Shown one piece after another: positions 2,826 to 20,260 of a stretch of DNA of 32,000 nucleotides (positions within the stretch are counted from its first letter, which is position 1; each line of letters starts with the position of its first letter). Origin of the DNA: an uncultured Candidatus Saccharibacteria bacterium (GTDB lineage: Bacteria; Patescibacteriota; UBA1384; XYA2-FULL-43-10; 1-14-0-10-43-13). Under the pieces are notes generated by a model, which did not search any database, was not told where the DNA came from, and saw only the letters and a program-made list of their open reading frames with translations. Location: the NCBI GenBank assembly GCA_964543385.1, contig CAZIYE010000004.1, forward strand, positions 17,233 to 49,232. The letters run 5' to 3'. Made by a program: the position numbers and the translations under genes.

Positions 2826-3872
2826 TTATATTAATTGGCACTGATCTACTGGCTTTTGTATTCTGAGGTGTTTATAAGCCAGAAGTGTGGCGATTCTACC
2901 ACGATTAGTACGATTAATAAACCCCAGCTGTAGAAGATATGGCTCTATAACGTCCTCTATTGTGTCTTTGTCTTCGGAAATTGCCGCGGAGATAGTCTCT
3001 AACCCAACTGGACCGCCACTAAATTTATTGATTATAGTATCCAGATAAAAACGATCATTTCTATCCAGACCTAATTCATCAATATCTAACTTATTGATTG
3101 CTTCAAAAGCTACAGCCTTATTCACAACACCATTATGCTTTACTTCTGCATAGTCTCTCACTCTCTTGAGAAGACGATTAGCTATACGTGGAGTCTTCCT
3201 TGATCTTTTGGCAATTTCTAGAATACCGCTATCATCTATCTTTATCCCAAGTATCTGTGCCGACCTTCTGATAATTTCTGAAAGTTCTTTATCTTCATAA
3301 AATTCAAGTCTATGTACAAAACCAAAGCGATCACGCAAAGGAGATGAAAGCGAACCAAACTTTGTAGTAGCACCGATTAAGGTAAACTTTGGAAGATTCA
3401 TTCTCATTGCTTTTGCAGAAGGCCCCTTACCTAATATTAGGTCAACGGCGTAATCCTCCATGGCAGAATACAAAATTTCCTCGACTGTGGTATTGAGACG
3501 ATGAATCTCATCGATGAAAAGAATATCGCTCTCAGATAAATTCGTCAGCAGAGACACCAGATCTCCTGATCTTTGGATGGCTGGACCTGACGTTATTCTA
3601 ATATTTACTCCCATCTCAGAGGCAATAATATTTGCAAGAGTAGTTTTGCCAAGCCCTGGAGGACCATAAAAAAGCATATGTTCAACTGGTTCGCTTCTTT
3701 TTCTGGCGGCTTCTATAAATATAACTAGATTTTCTTTGATTTGATTTTGTCCGACGTATTCTGCAATTTTTTTAGGCCGCAAAGAAAAATCGAGCACTTC
3801 ATCATCATTAGTAAAAGAAGTGGAGGTTAAATCAGACTCGAAATTTTCGCTATCACTTTTTTTCATATACAA
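2826..3872 (-). CDS. ruvB: Holliday junction branch-migration ATPase RuvB
   Basis: AAA+ Walker [12 protein letters not shown] and Walker B FIDEIHRL, with RuvB-type sensor and winged-helix C-terminus (GPVGLETI...[14 protein letters not shown]). Confidence 0.97.
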
Positions 3873-3941: not shown

Positions 3942-4526
3942 TTACTTCGCTGATAAGTTTTTTAAACACCACCGAACTCTTTCTTCGGTGGAGATTATAT
4001 CGGATGGGATTTTACTAACCAACCCCTGTATTTCTGATTTTTTATAGCCCAAAGATTGCATTGCATCCATTAAATCATCTGCTTCATCAATTTTCCCGAT
4101 GACGTTAATGCTTTTATCAGAAGATATTTTTGATTTAAGATCAAGGATTATTTTGGCTGCTACTTTCTTACCTATTCCAGAAATTGCAGTAAAGAAACTC
4201 ATGTCATCGCTGATTATTGCATGAAGAATTTTATCTGTCCCCGCATAGCTCATAATATTTAAACCAGCTTTTGGACCGACACCATTAACAGAAATCAATT
4301 TCTCAAATAACTCTAATTCTTGGTAGCTCAAAAAACCATAAAAATCATCGGCATCCTCCCTGATATGCTCATAGATATATAGCTCTACATCTTCTCGCGT
4401 ATCGACGATGTTATTCTTTATTTTGATTTGCGGATTGACAAAAACTTTATAACCGACTCCTCTAGTTTCCAGGATAATAAGACCCCATTTAAATAAAACT
4501 ACTCTACCTTTTAGATAAGAAATCAT
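3942..4526 (-). CDS. ruvA: Holliday junction DNA-binding protein RuvA
   Basis: 194 aa. N-terminal OB-like MISYLKGRV, two helix-hairpin-helix motifs (LISVNGVGPKAGLNI and ISGIGKKVAAKIILDL), and a C-terminal domain III. The ATG directly abuts the TAA of the upstream ATP-grasp gene (4527-4529). Confidence 0.93.
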   Translation of the reverse strand: MISYLKGRVVLFKWGLIILETRGVGYKVFVNPQIKIKNNIVDTREDVELYIYEHIREDADDFYGFLSYQELELFEKLISVNGVGPKAGLNIMSYAGTDKILHAIISDDMSFFTAISGIGKKVAAKIILDLKSKISSDKSINVIGKIDEADDLMDAMQSLGYKKSEIQGLVSKIPSDIISTEERVRWCLKNLSAK

Positions 4527-5538: not shown

Positions 5539-6519
5539 CTATTTAATTGTTTCTGGAAAATTGACATCGATAATTGCTGACGCAATATCAACCGGTTTGC
5601 CAATCGTTGGCTGATGGTGCAAAGCAATTCCAGGAATAGAATTTACTTCGATCACAACATAATTATCTTTATTCTGAAGTTTGGTGATATCTTTTGTCAT
5701 AAAATCAACCCCGCCATATTGCAAACCTGGTATTGCCTCAATAGCTTTCCTGGATATCTCTAAAACTGAAGGGTGTGCAATTTCATTACAGTCAAGACTT
5801 TCACCCCCTGTAGCAATATTAGAGTTTTCACGTAAGAATATTTGTTCATCCTTTTTTGGGATATAGTCTAAATCGTGTCCTTCTTTCTTAATCGTTCCGC
5901 GCACAACATCATCAATTACAATTTGTGCTAGTGGTGTAAGACCGGGGCCTCGTCTAGGATCCTGATTTTTTATGCCGATAAGTTCGCGCAGATTGTGAGT
6001 ACCGTCACCAACTACATTAGCAGGAATTCGGTGTATGACAGATAGAGATTTATCTCTGGTAGCGAATACGCGGTATTCTTTGCCAATAAACATCTTTTCA
6101 ACAATAATTTCGCTATATTTTTGGCCAATTTTTTTCCAGGCAGATAAAAACTGCTCCTTGTCCGATATGTTTGGAAACACAAGATCACCTTCCATGCCGG
6201 TAGTTGGCTTTACCACAACTGGCCAACCATTTTTTTCCACGTATGACAAAGCTTCATAGATTTGATCATTTAAGAAATTCATGCCTTTAGGGACTTCAAC
6301 CCCTGCTTCCTCGAGCAACATTTTTGTAAAATTTTTGTTCAGGCAAAACTTCGAAGCAAGTGCAGTCGTTTTAGATGAAAGAGTTTCATTGAAATACTCT
6401 TTATGTCCTTGATACTCCAAAACAAAGTAGTCCCTATGGTAAAATCTGACACTTATTCCCCGCTTTATTGCTTCATCTGTGACATATTTGACTGCCAAAC
6501 GCATGACTTTGTGACTCAT
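5539..6519 (-). CDS. stand-alone ATP-grasp ligase, cyanophycin-synthetase G-domain-like (paralog B)
   Basis: 326 aa, alignable end to end with paralog A. Motifs: GWPVVVKPTTGMEG, EYRVF, PANVVGDGTHNLRELIGIKNQDPRRG, FLRENSNIATGGESLDCNEIAHPS, VIEVNSIPGIALHHQP, NFPE. Lies 7 nt upstream of paralog A. Confidence 0.8.
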   Translation of the reverse strand: MSHKVMRLAVKYVTDEAIKRGISVRFYHRDYFVLEYQGHKEYFNETLSSKTTALASKFCLNKNFTKMLLEEAGVEVPKGMNFLNDQIYEALSYVEKNGWPVVVKPTTGMEGDLVFPNISDKEQFLSAWKKIGQKYSEIIVEKMFIGKEYRVFATRDKSLSVIHRIPANVVGDGTHNLRELIGIKNQDPRRGPGLTPLAQIVIDDVVRGTIKKEGHDLDYIPKKDEQIFLRENSNIATGGESLDCNEIAHPSVLEISRKAIEAIPGLQYGGVDFMTKDITKLQNKDNYVVIEVNSIPGIALHHQPTIGKPVDIASAIIDVNFPETIK

Positions 6520-13066: not shown

Positions 13067-13561
13067 ATGAAAAAAGAAGATAAAAAAACCGTAAAACAGG
13101 AAGAAGCTCCCGAGGTTTCTGAAAATGAGCAAAAAATCGGCGAACTAACGCTTGGATGGCAACGCTGTCAGGCTGATTTTCAAAATTACCGCCGCCAAGT
13201 TGAAGAAGACCGTAAAAAATTACTTAAACTAGCTAATGCCGACCTTATGATGGAGATATTACCGGTATTAGACAATTTTCAGCTTGCAGCTAAACATGTG
13301 CCGACAGAATTAGAAACCAACAATTGGGCACAAGGAATCAGACAAATCGAAAAGCAACTTGAGACTATATTGGAGAGCGAGGGCCTGACTCGAATACAGA
13401 CTGTTGGCTCTGAATTTAATCCCCATCTTCACGAAGCTATAGAACACGTTGAGTCCAATCAGCCAGAGGGTATAATTACCGAAGAAATCTCTGCCGGTTA
13501 TGAATTTGATGGTACATCACTTCGACCGGCTAAAGTGAAAGTCTCATGCGGAAATAAATAA
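13067..13561 (+). CDS. grpE: nucleotide exchange factor GrpE
   Basis: 164 aa with the coiled-coil signature FQNYRRQ.E.....L, then LPVLDNF, FNPHLHEA and a C-terminal beta domain. Confidence 0.93.
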   Translation: MKKEDKKTVKQEEAPEVSENEQKIGELTLGWQRCQADFQNYRRQVEEDRKKLLKLANADLMMEILPVLDNFQLAAKHVPTELETNNWAQGIRQIEKQLETILESEGLTRIQTVGSEFNPHLHEAIEHVESNQPEGIITEEISAGYEFDGTSLRPAKVKVSCGNK

Positions 13562-13598
13562 TTTGCGTAATATATAGCAGACTTAATTAGCTATCGAC

Positions 13599-13628
13599 TT
13601 AGACAGCTTGTCTTTTTTGTGTTATAAG
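13599..13628 (+). promoter_or_regulatory. promoter-like element of GC-rich cassette 1
   Basis: TTAGAC (13599-13604), an 18-nt spacer, then TATAAG (13623-13628) preceded by TG. It contains the 12-mer TTTTGTGTTATA (13615-13626), which recurs at 19775-19786. Confidence 0.4.
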
Positions 13629-13679
13629 GAATTCAGTGCCAATCATGGCCGAAACTCCCCTTTTCAAAAGGAGCCCCAT

Positions 13680-13988
13680 ATGTTGTTTGTGGACACATCA
13701 CTGCTGTCAGCAGCAGGGGCAGTGATCTTCCGTGTCGGAGGTGGATTAGAAAGCATCACCATCGATGACGTTGCACGGATCGTTGAACTTTACAACGGCG
13801 AAAGCAAGGAGCGACTCCTTGCACTGGCCTACATCGACGCGATCAAGGCGCGTGCCGCCTCGGACGGCAACACCGGCAAATTCGCCGAAATCGCCGCTGC
13901 GCTCGATGCTGCGCTCACCCCACGCGAGAAGGACATAACTCCCCTTCTCGAATCACTCCATCTGCCCGGAATGGGTGATGAGGGATAA
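13680..13988 (+). CDS. hypothetical small acidic protein (102 aa) in a compositionally foreign cassette
   Basis: ATG 13680 lies 6 nt after AAGGAG (13668-13673). The ORF uses GC-rich codons (GCC, GCG, CTG, ATC). Sequence: MLFVDTSLLSAAGAVIFRVGGG...LHLPGMGDEG. I recognise no family. The ORF-track TTG start at 13608 falls inside the promoter and is unlikely. Confidence 0.6.
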   Translation: MLFVDTSLLSAAGAVIFRVGGGLESITIDDVARIVELYNGESKERLLALAYIDAIKARAASDGNTGKFAEIAAALDAALTPREKDITPLLESLHLPGMGDEG

Positions 13989-14022
13989 CATCCTCGAAAG
14001 CAAAAAGAGAGGGATCTCCACG

Positions 14023-14054
14023 CCGCCCATGGATTGGGCGGTTTTGCTTTTCTG
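14023..14054 (+). terminator. intrinsic terminator of cassette 1
   Basis: Perfect 7-bp stem CCGCCCA (14023-14029) / TGGGCGG (14035-14041) with loop TGGAT, followed by TTTTGCTTTTCT. Confidence 0.7.
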
Positions 14055-14119
14055 GTCTTAATTTTGTCAATTACACACAATAAAATCGGATTGTCGCTTA
14101 TAAAAAATCAAAAAAGGTC

Positions 14120-14168
14120 TTGACAAAATGTAAAGTCTACTTTACATTTTATATGTATTGGTTATAAT
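14120..14168 (+). promoter_or_regulatory. dnaK promoter region (two candidate -10 boxes)
   Basis: TTGACA (14120-14125), a 17-nt spacer, then TACATT (14143-14148). Further downstream is TATAAT (14163-14168), for which TTTACA (14141-14146) is a possible -35. The dnaK SD AGGAG is at about 14229. Confidence 0.5.
14125..14150. promoter_or_regulatory. perfect palindromic operator candidate in the dnaK promoter
   Basis: AAAATGTAAAGT (14125-14136), then CT, then ACTTTACATTTT (14139-14150). The arms are exact 12-bp reverse complements. The palindrome fills the spacer of the TTGACA promoter and overlaps both candidate -35/-10 elements. Confidence 0.55.
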
Positions 14169-14238
14169 ATAATCAAGCAATAACAATTGCCTTCGGGCAA
14201 GATTAACAAAGAAATTAAGTAATAAATAGGAGAACGAT

Positions 14239-16104
14239 ATGTCAAAGATCATCGGTATTGACCTTGGTACTACAAATTCAGCCGTGGCTGTAATGGAAGG
14301 TGGCGAGGCAAAGATCATTACTTCAAGCGAAGGTGGACGCACAGTACCATCGATAGTTGCAGAAACTAAAAAGGGAGATAGATTAATTGGCCAACTAGCC
14401 AAGAGACAAGCTGTCACAAATGGTGATAATACTATTTTTTCGGTCAAACGTTTTATTGGTCGCAAATTTGATGATCCAGAAGTTCAGGCAGACCTCAAGA
14501 AAATGCCTTATGAGACCAAAAAGGCCTCTGATGGCTCCGTCCGAGTAATTATGAATGGCAAGGAATATAGTTCTCAGGAAATCTCTGCTTTCATTCTACA
14601 AAAAATTAAGGCTGATGCTGAAACCTATCTAGGTGGCAAAGTAACAGAAGCTGTTATCACTGTACCTGCGTATTTCAATGATGCACAACGCCAAGCTACC
14701 AAAGACGCCGGTAAGATTGCTGGGCTTGAGGTAAAAAGAATTATCAACGAGCCAACAGCTGCGGCTCTGGCTTATGGTTTGGACAAAAATAAAAATGAAA
14801 AGATCGCTGTTTATGACCTTGGTGGTGGTACTTTTGATATCACTATACTTGAGCTTGGAGATGGTGTCTTTGAAGTAAAAGCTACCAATGGTGATACTCA
14901 TCTTGGTGGTGATGATTTTGATCAGGTCATTATGGATCATATTATTGATGAATTCAAAAAAGATCAGGGAATTGATCTACATTCCGACAAAGCTGCTATC
15001 CAGCGTGTCAAAGAAGCTGCTGAGAAAGCTAAAATTGAGCTTTCAACAGCTGTCGAATCAGAAATCAATCTACCCTTTGTTACCGCTGATGCCTCCGGTC
15101 CTAAACATCTGCAAATGACTATCACTAGATCAGATTTGGAAAAGATGATCGGTTCATTGATCGAGCAAACCCTCAAACCTTGTGAACTTGTCTTGAAAGA
15201 TTCGAAACTACAAAAAAGCGAGATTAATGAAGTTATTCTTGTTGGTGGTATGACTCGTATGCCAGCTGTCCGCGAGGCCGTCAAGAAGTTCTTTGGCAAA
15301 GAGCCAAATCATTCAGTCAATCCTGATGAAGCAGTTGCTCTCGGCGCTGCAATCCAGGGTGGTGTTCTAGGTGGTGAAGTCAAAGATCTTTTACTCCTCG
15401 ATGTTACCCCCCTATCTCTAGGTATCGAAACACTTGGCGGAGTCTTCACCAAATTAATTGAGAGAAATACGACTATCCCAACCTCAAAATCAGAGACATT
15501 TTCTACTGCTGCCGACAATCAAACAAGTGTAGAAATCCATGTTTTACAGGGAGAGCGCGAATTTGCTAAGGATAATAAGACTCTCGGAAGATTCACTCTC
15601 GATGGTCTACCTCCTGCGCCTAGAGGCGTTCCTCAAGTAGAAGTAACTTTTGATATCGATGCCAACGGCATTGTAAATGTAAAGGCTATGGACAAGGCGA
15701 CCAGCAAAGAACAAAAAATTACTATCACTTCATCTTCTGGTTTATCAGAACAAGAAATCGAGCGTATGAAGAAGGAAGCCGAAGAGCATGCTGACGAAGA
15801 CAAGCAAAAGAAAGAGCTAATCGAAGCACGAAATATGGCTGACAGCTTGATTTACACCGCAGAGAAGTCCCTCAAAGATGCCGGCGACAAAGCTGATTCA
15901 AATTTGAAAGCTGATGTTGAGCAAAAGATCCAAGCGCTAAAAGATGTCAAAGACAAAGAAGTGCTTGATGAGATCAAAACTCAGACAGAGGGTTTGAGTA
16001 AATCACTCCAAGAGCTTGGCGCTGCAATGTACAAACAAGCAGAGCAACAGCCTAAGGGAGAGGAAGTAAAGCCAGAGGAAGAGAATAAAGAAGAAAATAA
16101 ATAA
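14239..16104 (+). CDS. dnaK: molecular chaperone DnaK (Hsp70)
   Basis: 621 aa with [29 protein letters not shown], the substrate-binding domain and a charged C-terminal tail. Good SD (AGGAG) upstream. Confidence 0.98.
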
Positions 16105-16236: not shown

Positions 16237-16887
16237 ATGAATTTTCGCCAACCGGCAATTTATATCATCATTTTTATTTCCTTGGCCATTGCGTTGGGCT
16301 GGTCATACTTCAGTAAGAAGAAAGACACTAAGACAACTACCAAAACAACGACAACTCAGCAACCAACCGAGGAAAAGATTTCTAATTTGACCAACATTGA
16401 CCCTGCTGATTTTGATTCTATTACCAAAGATACTTATGCCCTGGCAAGTTCAAAATCTTTGGAGGCTAGTAGTGGTAACAAGCTCGCCGCTGTAGAAGTA
16501 AAAATTGATGGTAATTTGTCGCCAGATACAATCACAACACGATATGTCTTTAGTTCATCAGGGGATACTGATAACAATTGGGTGATAGCATTTTCCGGCA
16601 AGAGTAATAAATATGTTCGGATGCTCACACCTGTCAAAGATTTTATGGGAGTACTTAGCCCCATGAATACTAAGGCCTGGAAATATAATTTTGTGACTGC
16701 ACTTCAACTGGCTGAGAAAAACGGTGGATTAGCTTGGCGAGAAAACCAGAAGCTTCAGGGAATAAAGTTGACATTGAAACATACTGGCAAGAAAGCATGG
16801 CTGCTGTGGGTCGTCGAATACGAAGGAGAAACTGATAAATTCGCTATCCAACTTGATGCTAATTCTGGTAGAGTAGTTGAGGAATAA
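16237..16887 (+). CDS. membrane-anchored hypothetical protein with a Thr/Lys-rich linker and a PepSY-like C-terminal fold (tentative)
   Basis: 216 aa. N-terminal TM helix (IYIIIFISLAIALGWSYF), linker TKTTTKTTTTQQPTEE, and C-terminal ...WVVEYEGETDKFAIQLDANSGRVVEE, which resembles the end of PepSY-type domains. Sits between dnaK and dnaJ. Confidence 0.55.
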   Translation: MNFRQPAIYIIIFISLAIALGWSYFSKKKDTKTTTKTTTTQQPTEEKISNLTNIDPADFDSITKDTYALASSKSLEASSGNKLAAVEVKIDGNLSPDTITTRYVFSSSGDTDNNWVIAFSGKSNKYVRMLTPVKDFMGVLSPMNTKAWKYNFVTALQLAEKNGGLAWRENQKLQGIKLTLKHTGKKAWLLWVVEYEGETDKFAIQLDANSGRVVEE

Positions 16888-16897
16888 TTAACATTTT

Positions 16898-16970
16898 AAT
16901 GTCATTCCGATCACCTACCCGCAAATACTAGAAGATCGATTTGCAGGCAGTAATTAGGATGACATTTTTT
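16898..16970 (+). promoter_or_regulatory. nested hairpin plus T-run between the membrane-protein gene and dnaJ (terminator/attenuator candidate)
   Basis: Outer arms AATGTCAT (16898-16905) / ATGACATT (16959-16966), extendable by CC/GG with a bulge. Inner arms GCAAAT (16921-16926) / ATTTGC (16939-16944). Followed by TTTTTT. The structure ends 10 nt before the dnaJ ATG. Confidence 0.35.
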
Positions 16971-16979
16971 AAGACATTT

Positions 16980-17609
16980 ATGGCAACAGATCATTATAAA
17001 ACACTAGGCATTTCCAAAAATGCCACCACAGAAGAGATAAAGAAGGCTTATAGAAAGCTTGCTTTGCAATACCATCCTGATCGAGGCGGAGACAAAGAAT
17101 CGGAAAAAAAGTTCAAGGAAGTAAATGAAGCCTATCAGATCCTCTCGGATCCAGAAAAGAGGAAAAGATACGATCAATTCGGCGACGCAGCTTTCAAGGG
17201 AGGCGGATATAGCAGAGGTCAGGAATACGGAGGCTTTGACTTCTCCGGTTTTGGCGGAGGTGATTTTTCTGGTTTTGGCGGAGGGCTCGGGGATATTTTT
17301 GAAGATTTCTTTGGCCAGCAACTTTCACAAGTTCAGGCCGAGTTAAATATTACTCCTTCACAGGCTGTATTGGGTGACAAGATAAATCTAGAGGTTGGCG
17401 GAGAAAAAGTATCTCTTGATATTCCAGCAGGAGTCCAAAGCGGCATGTCATTTCGCTTTCCCGGAAAAGGTAGAGCATATAGAGGTGGCAAAAAGGGCGA
17501 TCTGATATTGACTATAAATATTCAAATGCCAAAACATATCTCCAAAGAGCAGCGTGAATTATGGGAAAAGCTTCGGGAATCTGAATCGAAGAAAAAGTGG
17601 TGGGGATAA
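16980..17609 (+). CDS. dnaJ: minimal DnaJ-like co-chaperone (J domain + G/F region + single C-terminal beta domain, no zinc finger)
   Basis: [12 protein letters not shown]...[15 protein letters not shown] (HPD motif), a G/F repeat ([15 protein letters not shown]), then one CTD-like segment ([23 protein letters not shown]). No CxxCxGxG repeats. Start at ATG 16980; ATG 16959 is an alternative; the ORF-track start at 16941 is TTG. Confidence 0.85.
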
Positions 17610-18668: not shown

Positions 18669-18743
18669 GGGCCGTTAGCTCAATGGTAGAGCAGTGGCCT
18701 TTTAAGCCATTGGTTCTGGGTTCGATCCCCAGGCGGCCCACCA
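18669..18743 (+). tRNA. tRNA-Lys (anticodon UUU), CCA encoded
   Basis: Manual cloverleaf: acceptor GGGCCGT/GCGGCCC, D arm GCTC-AATGGTA-GAGC, anticodon arm GTGGC-CTTTTAA-GCCAT, variable TGGTT, T arm CTGGG-TTCGATC-CCCAG, discriminator A, then CCA. Confidence 0.9.
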
Positions 18744-18751
18744 ATAAAAAC

Positions 18752-18777
18752 GCATCACAAAAGTGGTGTTTTTTTAT
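18752..18777 (+). terminator. intrinsic terminator after tRNA-Lys
   Basis: CATCAC (18753-18758) / GTGGTG (18763-18768) with one G-U pair, loop AAAA, followed by TTTTTTTAT. Confidence 0.6.
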
Positions 18778-18922
18778 TGTTTTTTATGTTCGACTCCTCG
18801 CTTGTCAACCAAAGATTTAATATCCCTAGAGATATTTTTTAAAACGGTAATTGCTTGACTATATCAATGCAAGGCTTTAGATTAGTAACTTGCTACTTTT
18901 ATTAATATACAAGAGATTACCA

Positions 18923-19669
18923 ATGAAATTAAATAAAAGATTAATATTGAAAAATTGGCGTGCTTATCTACTAGTCTTGTTTCTGCTTTTAGTTCTCGGT
19001 ACAAGAGGCGTTATCTACGCTAAAGATTTTAAAAATGCAAAACAGATAATCAGTAAAAATGAAGAAACTGCTGCAATCGCAACAGCAGCTGCCCCAGACA
19101 CAGCAAAGGAACTGGAACTCCCAGTCGAAATTCCGGTAGAGACTCCGAAGGCAGAAGTAGTATCTCCGCCAGCCACGAAAAAGACGACTACGTCGAGCAC
19201 TCCTGCCCCAACCCGCCGGCAAGCAACACCACTTAAAAATAATGTTGCACCATCAACTCCTACACCAGTGACAGCTCCTGTCCCAAAAGATGTTAATTTT
19301 TCTGTCAGTCAAATTATTGCACTTATAAACAATGAAAGAGCCAGGAATGGACTGCAACCAGTAATTGAAAATGGTCTTTTAAATCAAGCCGCCTATCTTA
19401 AGACTAAAGATATGTCAGACAATAATTATTTTGCTCATACTGCTCCAGATGGAACGGCTGATGTATATTTTGTAGAAAAAGTTGGCTACAAATACCAATC
19501 AATCGGATTCAATATAGCAAAGGGCGATTTCGGCAACTCTGCTGGTCTCGTACAAGCATGGATGGATAGTACGGGACATCGAGCAAATATTTTGGCAAAT
19601 TATGGCCAACAAATTGGGATCGGTATTTATGGTAAATACTACGTAATGATGATCGCAAAGGTGCTGTAA
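18923..19669 (+). CDS. secreted/anchored CAP (SCP/YkwD-like) domain protein with a Pro/Thr/Ala-rich linker
   Basis: Start at ATG 18923 (MKLNKRL; the ORF-track start at 18890 is TTG). Signal-anchor helix, low-complexity linker, then a CAP domain: INNERARNGLQP, YFAHTAPDG, WMDSTGHRANIL. Confidence 0.8.
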   Translation: MKLNKRLILKNWRAYLLVLFLLLVLGTRGVIYAKDFKNAKQIISKNEETAAIATAAAPDTAKELELPVEIPVETPKAEVVSPPATKKTTTSSTPAPTRRQATPLKNNVAPSTPTPVTAPVPKDVNFSVSQIIALINNERARNGLQPVIENGLLNQAAYLKTKDMSDNNYFAHTAPDGTADVYFVEKVGYKYQSIGFNIAKGDFGNSAGLVQAWMDSTGHRANILANYGQQIGIGIYGKYYVMMIAKVL

Positions 19670-19759
19670 TTGATTATAAGATAATTGTTATGCTCCGATA
19701 AAACTATCCTTTTTTTGCTACTTTTATTTCTTTCAAGCACAAAACTATTGTATTTTTCT

Positions 19760-19788
19760 TTGACACAATATTGATTTTGTGTTATACA
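19760..19788 (+). promoter_or_regulatory. promoter-like element of GC-rich cassette 2
   Basis: Consensus TTGACA (19760-19765), a 17-nt spacer, then TATACA (19783-19788) preceded by TG. It contains the same 12-mer TTTTGTGTTATA (19775-19786) as cassette 1. Confidence 0.45.
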
Positions 19789-19816
19789 TATGACATCCAA
19801 AAAGGAGGTTACCCCC

Positions 19817-20260
19817 ATGAGTATCTTTTCCTGTCCGACCCTCTGGATTGCCGTGATCGGTGCCCTTGGCGGCATCATTGCGCTGATCAAATCATTGGTG
19901 GCCAAATTTCGCAAGTCCAAAAGCAGCAATGCAACCCAGGACATAACAGTAGAGACAGAACAACTGTCACAGCAAGATATCGAGTATCTCATCCGGTGCC
20001 TGAATGATTCTTGCTATCGTGCGAGGATTCGCGCTGTCCATAACCTTGGCGAATTCAAAATCGCCTCATCATTACCAGCGCTGATAAAGCGAGCCGAAAA
20101 AGAAGACGATGAAGATGTCAAGGAAGAAATCGTCTACGCCTTGTCAAAAATCGCGACGCCAGAAGCAATCGAATATATCCGCGAAATGATTGAGGACGAT
20201 TGCGAAAATGTCCGCGAGGCTGCTGAAAGGTGCCTAAAAGCATTTACAGTAACCGCCTGA
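19817..20260 (+). CDS. N-terminally membrane-anchored HEAT-repeat (PBS-lyase HEAT-like) protein, compositionally atypical
   Basis: ATG 19817 lies 8 nt after AAGGAGG (19802-19808). TM helix LWIAVIGALGGIIALIKSLV followed by KFRKSK. HEAT-like repeats follow: ...RARIRAVHNLGEF...ALIKRAEKEDDEDVKEEIVYALSKI.TPEAIEYIREMIEDDCENVREAAERCL. The ORF-track ATG at 19790 sits in the -10 box with no SD. Confidence 0.65.
   Translation: MSIFSCPTLWIAVIGALGGIIALIKSLVAKFRKSKSSNATQDITVETEQLSQQDIEYLIRCLNDSCYRARIRAVHNLGEFKIASSLPALIKRAEKEDDEDVKEEIVYALSKIATPEAIEYIREMIEDDCENVREAAERCLKAFTVTA

Follow-up and report, generated by a model that had tools for sequence, protein, structure and literature searches.

A coding unit of foreign composition between grpE and dnaK in a patescibacterial genome, the probable cargo of a gene-turnover hotspot

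Introduction

Prophage morons are autonomous units of promoter, gene, and terminator, deviant in composition and inserted between phage genes. Heat-shock operons of the Firmicutes type have the order hrcA-grpE-dnaK-dnaJ and carry the controlling inverted repeat of chaperone expression (CIRCE). A third kind of system, defined within the pan-genomes of species, is the gene-turnover hotspot (Oliveira et al. 2017, PMC5635113), a class of which lacks mobile elements and is explained by recombination within its conserved flanking sequence. Here, we describe a locus that resembles each of these in part: a GC-rich segment between grpE and dnaK, carrying a 102-codon open reading frame (ORF) that we call ORF102, in a 32-kb stretch of contig CAZIYE010000004.1. 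This whole stretch of DNA, to which all positions refer unless a relative is named, is hereafter the window. GrpE homologues place the host in the Patescibacteria (Candidate Phyla Radiation [CPR]), near genomes labeled Berkelbacteria or "Patescibacteria group."

We judge it probable, at roughly 60%, that the segment of about 0.5 kb that is particular to this lineage is one complete protein gene of foreign composition, lodged in a turnover hotspot that is bounded by the stop codon of grpE and the conserved, operator-controlled promoter of dnaK. A coding unit of foreign composition is fixed in one population. Below, we set out the composition and architecture of the unit, its absence from related genomes, the conservation of the neighboring dnaK promoter, and the other explanations of the island in the order in which they survive.

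Results

The variable site lies between two conserved genes on the + strand. On the left is grpE (13067..13561; PF01025 GrpE), with relatives 44 to 85% identical, and on the right is dnaK (14239..16104; PF00012 HSP70), with relatives 87 to 92% identical; 677 bp separate the stop of grpE (13561) from the start of dnaK (14239). The lineage-specific segment spans ~540 bp (13569..14110, boundaries approximate, without strand), from just past the grpE stop to the conserved block that holds the dnaK promoter. At its left edge, reading of the sequences shows similarity to one relative, L036, stopping ~10 to 20 nt past the grpE stop, and at its right edge, similarity to four others (L039, L041, L045, and L006) restarts at about 14110 to 14115. 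The remaining genes of the window are all housekeeping genes, including queA/queH, ruvABC, yebC, comEC, grpE, dnaK, dnaJ, lepA, murJ, ftsH, and tilS.

In an AT-rich host genome, represented by a window of 38.3% G+C (0.383, standard deviation [sd] 0.051), positions 13640 to 14052 reach 55%. The peak of 0.63 (150-nt windows, 13776 to 13975) lies ~4.8 sd above the mean, and no other island in the 32 kb is as rich in G+C. The hand counts of the first-pass annotation of this DNA, 37/60 and 40/60 in the segment and 23/60 in grpE, were exact on recount. Its view that the segment is foreign in composition is borne out by comparison of ORF102 with 31 host genes, which gives z-scores of +6.9 for G+C, +5.5 for G+C at third codon positions (GC3), and -7.7 for host-referenced codon adaptation.

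The island had also been described as a self-contained unit, and a promoter-like site, a Shine-Dalgarno sequence, an ORF, and a terminator are indeed all present. The promoter-like site, read from the sequence on the + strand, is TAGACA-N17-(TG-n-)TATAAG at 13600..13628, with TAGACA at 13600 to 13605 and TATAAG at 13623 to 13628. Its register, first given as TTAGAC-N18-TG-n-TATAAG, is better read as TAGACA-N17, in which 10/12 positions match. The Shine-Dalgarno sequence AAGGAG (13668-13673, + strand) stands six nt ahead of ATG 13680, which is correct spacing. Overlapping it is a leader hairpin, CUCC/GGAG (13656..13673, + strand), which the annotation had thought might partly sequester the Shine-Dalgarno sequence; the hairpin is there, but at -3.3 kcal/mol it is too weak to support a claim of regulation. 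ORF102 follows (13680..13988, + strand; 102 aa plus the stop TAA at 13986 to 13988), and the unit is closed, ahead of the dnaK promoter, by an intrinsic terminator in the form of a compound GC-rich hairpin with a T-run (13996..14052, + strand; -25.9 kcal/mol). The stem-loop of this terminator at 14022 to 14042 has 8 pairs, 6 of them G-C, and is followed by TTTGCTTTTC. The Shine-Dalgarno sequence, start codon, 102-codon ORF, and terminator of the first-pass annotation are all present. A further hairpin, AGACA-GCU-UGUCU with a T-run (13601..13618, + strand; -2.9 kcal/mol), follows grpE and overlaps the -35 of the unit; it did not appear in the terminator scan and is at best a leaky terminator.

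ORF102 has the signature of a coding sequence. Its nucleotide use varies by codon position (chi2 = 36, p = 2.7e-6), G makes up 46% of first codon positions, and G+C at the three positions (GC1/2/3) is 0.66/0.44/0.60. Length alone is not significant, as an ORF of at least 102 codons occurs in 8% of dinucleotide shuffles. The predicted product is an acidic (pI 4.5), all-helical orphan protein of 10.7 kDa. An AlphaFold2 (AF2) model from the single sequence has 4 to 5 helices, with a confidence (pLDDT) of 62, rising to ~75 over residues 30 to 80, obtained without an alignment. We regard it as very probable that ORF102 is, or recently was, a protein-coding gene.

Relatives carry other content at the same site. 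We chose the closest GrpE homologues and compared their contigs, among which L005 to L007 are GTDB genomes. The synteny of the window, RuvC-YebC-MBL-ComEC / grpE ... dnaK-219 aa-dnaJ-...-holin, is found in L041/L042 (GrpE 79% identical), where grpE and dnaK are 285 bp apart, and again in L045 (71%), where a 1.3-kb spacer holds other small ORFs; the order ComEC-grpE...dnaK-216/221 aa-dnaJ is common to all three. The annotation had called the gene lineage specific, and ORF102 is absent from both of these syntenic loci. Elsewhere, a 409-aa GGR-like flavin adenine dinucleotide (FAD) oxidoreductase lies between grpE and dnaK (L037 to L040, 78%), a membrane protein (L036, 85%) or a cupin (L049, 80%) follows grpE, or a 340-aa FAD oxidoreductase is followed by a small ORF (L043/L047, 74% by BLASTP, and L046, 71%). 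In L005 to L007 (44%), the site is taken by an opposite-strand 216-aa protein, by two genes of ~2 kb, or by Hsp20 (L007).

At least seven different states thus follow grpE among the relatives, between conserved flanking genes, as in hotspots of horizontal gene transfer flanked by core genes. Because the relatives carry differing content after grpE, this site is a gene-turnover hotspot in the clade, and ORF102 is one lineage's cargo. The earlier idea that the insert splits a normally fused grpE-dnaK pair is not supported, as the position after grpE varies in nearly every relative examined. In several independent contigs of the clade (including L003, L050, and L051), the sequence stops at grpE, a few dozen bases past it, or within the dnaK promoter block, as would happen if assemblies broke on strain-level variation at the hotspot. 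The contexts of L050 and L051 are uninformative, since their contigs end at or just after grpE.

The one part of the spacer that is conserved among relatives is a block at 14110 to 14172, with 88 to 100% identity over 30 to 60 nt. It contains, outside the insert, the dnaK promoter TTGACA-N17-TACATT (14120..14150, + strand), made up of a perfect -35 hexamer (14120 to 14125), a 17-nt spacer, and the -10 TACATT (14143 to 14148). Spacer and -10 hold the palindrome AAAATGTAAAGT-CT-ACTTTACATTTT, which in the window is a perfect inverted repeat of 12 + 12 nt (14125 to 14150). Seven lineages align without gaps as TC-TTGACA-AAATGTAAAGT-NN-ACTTTACATT, and the palindrome AATGTAAAGT-NN-ACTTTACATT is nearly invariant among them, with GrpE identity down to 44% and G+C from 38 to 52%. 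The block lies at 4789-4824 in L005, 6430-6465 in L006, 5787-5822 in L037, 5777-5812 in L039, 5556-5591 in L041, and 6696-6731 in L045. It matches L006 at 100% over 34 nt, even though GrpE of that genome is 44% identical and its locus has 52% G+C. The palindrome block occurs once per locus, in each case ahead of dnaK. CIRCE is absent, the palindrome ahead of dnaK being a different one, and this palindrome is probably the operator of a heat-shock repressor.

On this alignment, the dnaK promoter and operator are ancestral and were already in place when the insert arrived upstream, because the block is conserved nearly base for base, including in L041, where the spacer is 285 bp and the block lies ~50 nt past the grpE stop. 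The proposal that the insert forced dnaK onto its own promoter is therefore contradicted by the conservation of promoter and operator in seven lineages, L041 among them. What may remain of that proposal is a change in the degree of separation: grpE and dnaK are probably more insulated in this lineage than in L041, because the strong ORF102 terminator should stop read-through from grpE, and the hairpin after grpE is weak.

Two observations concern the surroundings of this promoter. At the right border of the insert, a perfect 10-nt inverted copy of the edge of the dnaK -35 and operator is present (14061-14070 and 14120-14129; ATTTTGTCAA / TTGACAAAAT), which may be chance in AT-rich DNA or an insertion footprint. 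Downstream of the block, L041 and L039 have a long dnaK 5' leader (~200 nt) with a GC-rich hairpin-forming stretch (5600-5800 and 5858-5957, respectively; up to 61% G+C). It may be a structured leader; no Rfam match was found. The dnaK leader of the window is short, with a UUCG-capped hairpin at 14187 to 14200.

Marks of a mobile element are wanting in the places searched. Pfam scans of the 32-kb window found no integrase, transposase, or phage genes, and repeats bordering the segment within 13400 to 14300 are not convincing (the best is 24 nt at 71%), with no terminal repeats and no target duplication; BLAST found no second copy of the segment in the window. An insertion sequence or miniature inverted-repeat transposable element was rejected on these border repeats, the missing duplication, and the single copy. 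We also considered an integron gene cassette and rejected it, as the window has no integrase by Pfam, the cassette is single, and the downstream hairpin has the G-C stem and T-run typical of a terminator; attC core sites were judged by eye only.

Searches for homologues of ORF102 were likewise negative. No match was found in Pfam, NCBIfam, PHROGs (no significant hit), or PADLOC, and in Foldseek searches of PDB and BFVD the AF2 model found no match with an E below 3.8, in agreement with the initial remark that the protein fits no known family. For the roles floated in the annotation, a chaperone modulator or an anti-defense factor, nothing came from PADLOC or PHROGs. A word-indexed search of 5.8 billion clusters returned the query itself alone. 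HMMER, run in full against 1.84 billion representatives, recovered the query and three long tandem-repeat proteins, which we judged spurious on reading the sequences, their E-values arising from repeat-summed scores. tblastn against phage and plasmid records gave no match.

The candidate relatives of ORF102 are two ORFs of sister genomes. A GC-rich island also follows grpE in L043 (0.53 to 0.57 in a genome of 0.385); it is a 110-aa ORF, P0125 (L043/L047), and searching with an alignment of ORF102 and P0125 recovered P0126 (109 aa, L046). Both are, by their pattern of divergence, clearly coding: they share 71% aa identity, differ at 15/20/39 sites by codon position, and have G+C of 0.535 to 0.54 in genomes of 0.385 to 0.42, with GC1/2/3 of ~0.64/0.40/0.57-0.58. 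No new sequence came from scans of viral and JGI metagenome contigs in which ORF102 and the three-sequence alignment, back-translated, served as queries.

From these ORFs arises the first of two competing explanations of about equal standing, namely, that ORF102, P0125, and P0126 form a small, fast-evolving, intrinsically GC-rich family that is tied to the grpE neighborhood of this clade and works with the chaperones, for example as a regulator or cofactor, so that ORF102 would not be random cargo. P0125 and P0126, two genes after grpE, are like ORF102 in size, acidity, helical prediction, GC excess over the host, strand, and neighborhood, and their G+C by codon position resembles that of ORF102. 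Smith-Waterman alignment of ORF102 with P0125 gives z = 6.6 (0/1000 shuffles as high); ORF102 and P0125/P0126 are reciprocal best phmmer/hmmsearch matches among 2972 six-frame ORFs, at weak E-values of 0.03 to 0.05 with the next above 1; and the hhalign alignment (P = 0.0017) has 30% identity across 57 columns, which cover the S/T-[IL]-[DE]-D-V-x-x-I-V and I-x-x-R-A segments. Predicted helices also fall at matching positions.

Against such a family, BLASTP finds no match between ORF102 and the pair, and the hhalign probability is 16%. Identity is 24 to 28%, whereas ~60% would be expected for orthologues from GrpE divergence (70%) and the P0125/P0126 rate. The gene is missing from the closer relatives L041, L037 to L040, L049, and L045, and all databases searched yield three members only. 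Unlike ORF102, P0125 and P0126 are separated from grpE by an FAD oxidoreductase gene, and dnaK does not follow in L043. Taken together, the sequence comparisons give homology an about even chance; true homologues would be paralogues or separately acquired cassettes and not conserved operon members. A chaperone-linked family of this kind is, in our estimate, unlikely. Less likely still is a more specific version, in which the three ORFs would be the first representatives of a family, restricted to the clade, of small, acidic, helical proteins encoded downstream of grpE that modulates the DnaK/GrpE system of these ultra-small bacteria, with G+C actively maintained 15 to 18 points above the host (e.g., by temperature-tuning mRNA hairpins). 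Were the link to P0125 and P0126 true, the ORFs would represent a lineage-specific chaperone-associated family that keeps its GC excess within AT-rich genomes.

One further observation concerns L046, in which a perfect 49-nt inverted repeat (3519-3567 and 3976-4024) brackets the P0126 gene, the first arm starting with the upstream oxidoreductase's stop codon and the second reaching the contig end. The orthologous L043 locus lacks the repeat, which could mark an invertible or mobile cassette or be an assembly effect.

The second explanation, which we hold to be no more probable than a chaperone-linked family, is that the segment is inert passenger DNA, a fragment of a gene of a GC-richer organism fixed in a permissive spacer, which keeps the coding signature of its donor and is neither expressed nor functional. 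A composition far from that of the host with no amelioration, an imperfect promoter, an ORF of unremarkable length, the lack of homologues that would show conservation, and ComEC encoded next door are all in keeping with this. But the unit is complete, with a strong Shine-Dalgarno sequence at ideal spacing, an ATG, a stop codon, and, immediately downstream, a terminator; for a random fragment of a gene, recognizable homologues from the donor would be expected among 15 billion proteins, yet none was found; and the segment is fixed, with no sequence difference among four samples.

That the GC-rich island is instead a structured noncoding RNA on either strand, such as a regulatory RNA of the heat-shock locus with the ORF incidental, is very improbable. 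GC-rich islands within AT-rich genomes often mark structured RNAs, the whole segment has fold z-scores of -3.3 (+ strand) and -4.9 (- strand), and several perfect hairpins, with three compensatory changes, appear in the L043/L046 alignment. Yet the three-base periodicity of ORF102 is strong, and the third-position-biased divergence of P0125 and P0126 points to selection at the protein level. When folding is confined to the ORFs, the z-scores (-2.0, -3.1, and -1.2; that of ORF102, -2.0, is mildly negative) are just slightly under those of five host gene segments (-1.4 to +0.3). The island matches no Rfam 15 family, at gathering score or at E <= 10, and contains no transfer-messenger RNA or tRNA by ARAGORN. 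Within 13400 to 14300, the best Rfam E is 0.47 or worse, far below gathering, a score reached in the window only by two tRNAs that both lie elsewhere; Rfam searches of five related loci gave no match. We rejected the RNAalifold hairpins of the related pair as evidence, since covariation in two sequences is a powerless test and was not significant (57/500 shuffles as high).

The weakest explanation, an assembly or binning chimera that joined DNA of a GC-rich organism into the contig, could draw on the abrupt composition change at both edges and is effectively refuted, because identical junctions, with host genes on either side, recur in separate assemblies. Four of the five contigs that encode the exact ORF102 protein are separate Logan run assemblies (SRR12261223, SRR12261225, SRR12261226, and SRR12261227), which are 100% identical to the window over 1.7 to 15 kb, both junctions and flanking host genes included; the protein is also listed in the database from an NCBI record. 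A check for such a chimera had been advised from the outset, and with the same junctions found base for base in four run assemblies, the insert is real.

Several features of the window lie downstream of the site. Between dnaK and dnaJ, a gene at 16237-16887 encodes a protein of 216 aa that has a membrane anchor at its N terminus; its single family match is a sub-threshold one to DUF7537, and a protein of 216 to 221 aa occupies the same position in L039, L041/L042, and L045. The gene seems to be a lineage-specific component of the dnaK-dnaJ unit. DnaJ itself (16941-17609 in the window) is short (209 to 222 aa), with a J domain and part of DnaJ_C; the zinc-finger domain was not detected. Farther on, tRNA-Lys (18669-18743) is followed, within 18669-20260, by the genes of a secreted CAP-domain protein and a 156-aa HEAT-repeat protein. 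A second GC peak at 19076-19275 comes from the Pro/Thr/Ala-rich linker of the CAP-domain protein, and the HEAT-repeat gene (19790-20260), at ~0.47 G+C, is probably the highest in G+C of the 31 host genes compared. The stretch from 18669 to 20260 may be another small variable region.

Discussion

The preferred reading, a complete foreign-composition gene carried as cargo in a hotspot after grpE, has several points against it. No donor or homologue appeared among ~15 billion predicted proteins, phage and plasmid records, or viral and metagenome contigs, and foreign origin therefore rests on composition and absence from relatives. The -10 hexamer of the promoter-like site is without the usually invariant final T, and a consensus promoter scan did not list the site. 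Every available copy of ORF102 is identical (five, at 100%, representing one population of this species), so selection on the gene, as the ratio of nonsynonymous to synonymous change (dN/dS), is not measurable. Finally, the sole candidate relatives, P0125 and P0126, are in sister genomes, likewise downstream of grpE and likewise GC rich, a hint of a family that is resident in, or circulates through, the clade, as opposed to a single import. If related GC-rich genes have indeed persisted in these three AT-rich genomes, a recent import from a GC-rich donor is not proved by GC excess alone.

If ORF102 is cargo of this kind, a simple course of expression can be proposed. It would be transcribed from its own TAGACA-N17-TGnTATAAG promoter and/or, probably, by read-through from grpE, because the sole hairpin downstream of grpE is weak. 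Translation from AAGGAG would yield a cytoplasmic acidic protein of ~four helices and 10.7 kDa, for which binding of a partner is more plausible than catalysis. The terminator at 14022-14052 would halt these transcripts ahead of dnaK, and dnaK would remain under its own repressor-controlled promoter. By analogy with hotspots free of mobile elements, the gene probably arrived through recombination anchored in the very conserved flanks.

ORF102 is, on this reading, an ordinary accessory gene and does not mark a disrupted operon. We lean toward regarding its chaperone neighborhood as incidental, since the genes that relatives carry at this site are unrelated. As one more orphan accessory gene, it offers a clean example in the Patescibacteria of cargo exchange between two highly conserved chaperone genes without a mobility gene. 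The near-invariant promoter and operator of dnaK, a concrete handle on heat-shock regulation in the CPR, are perhaps of more practical use than ORF102 itself.

Comparison with the described systems places the locus. With the hrcA-grpE-dnaK-dnaJ operons it shares the order grpE...dnaK...dnaJ and an inverted-repeat operator overlapping the promoter ahead of dnaK. It differs from them in having no CIRCE and instead the palindrome AATGTAAAGT-N2-ACTTTACATT ahead of dnaK only, in keeping grpE and dnaK as separate units with variable cargo between, and in the extra gene for a 216-aa membrane protein between dnaK and dnaJ.

The comparison with a prophage moron, offered in the first-pass annotation, stands as an analogy: the ORF102 unit is a single gene with a promoter-like site ahead, an intrinsic terminator behind, and a composition unlike that of both neighbors. 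In the literal sense it fails, since ORF102 is not in a prophage, its neighbors in the window are all housekeeping genes, and the 32 kb hold no phage, integrase, or transposase gene. Core-flanked hotspots (PMC5635113) differ in being defined within the pan-genomes of one species, whereas the comparison here spans metagenome-derived genomes with 44 to 85% GrpE identity. As in those hotspots, conserved flanks, here grpE and dnaK, enclose a site of rapid turnover where the cargo differs and no mobile-element genes are present.

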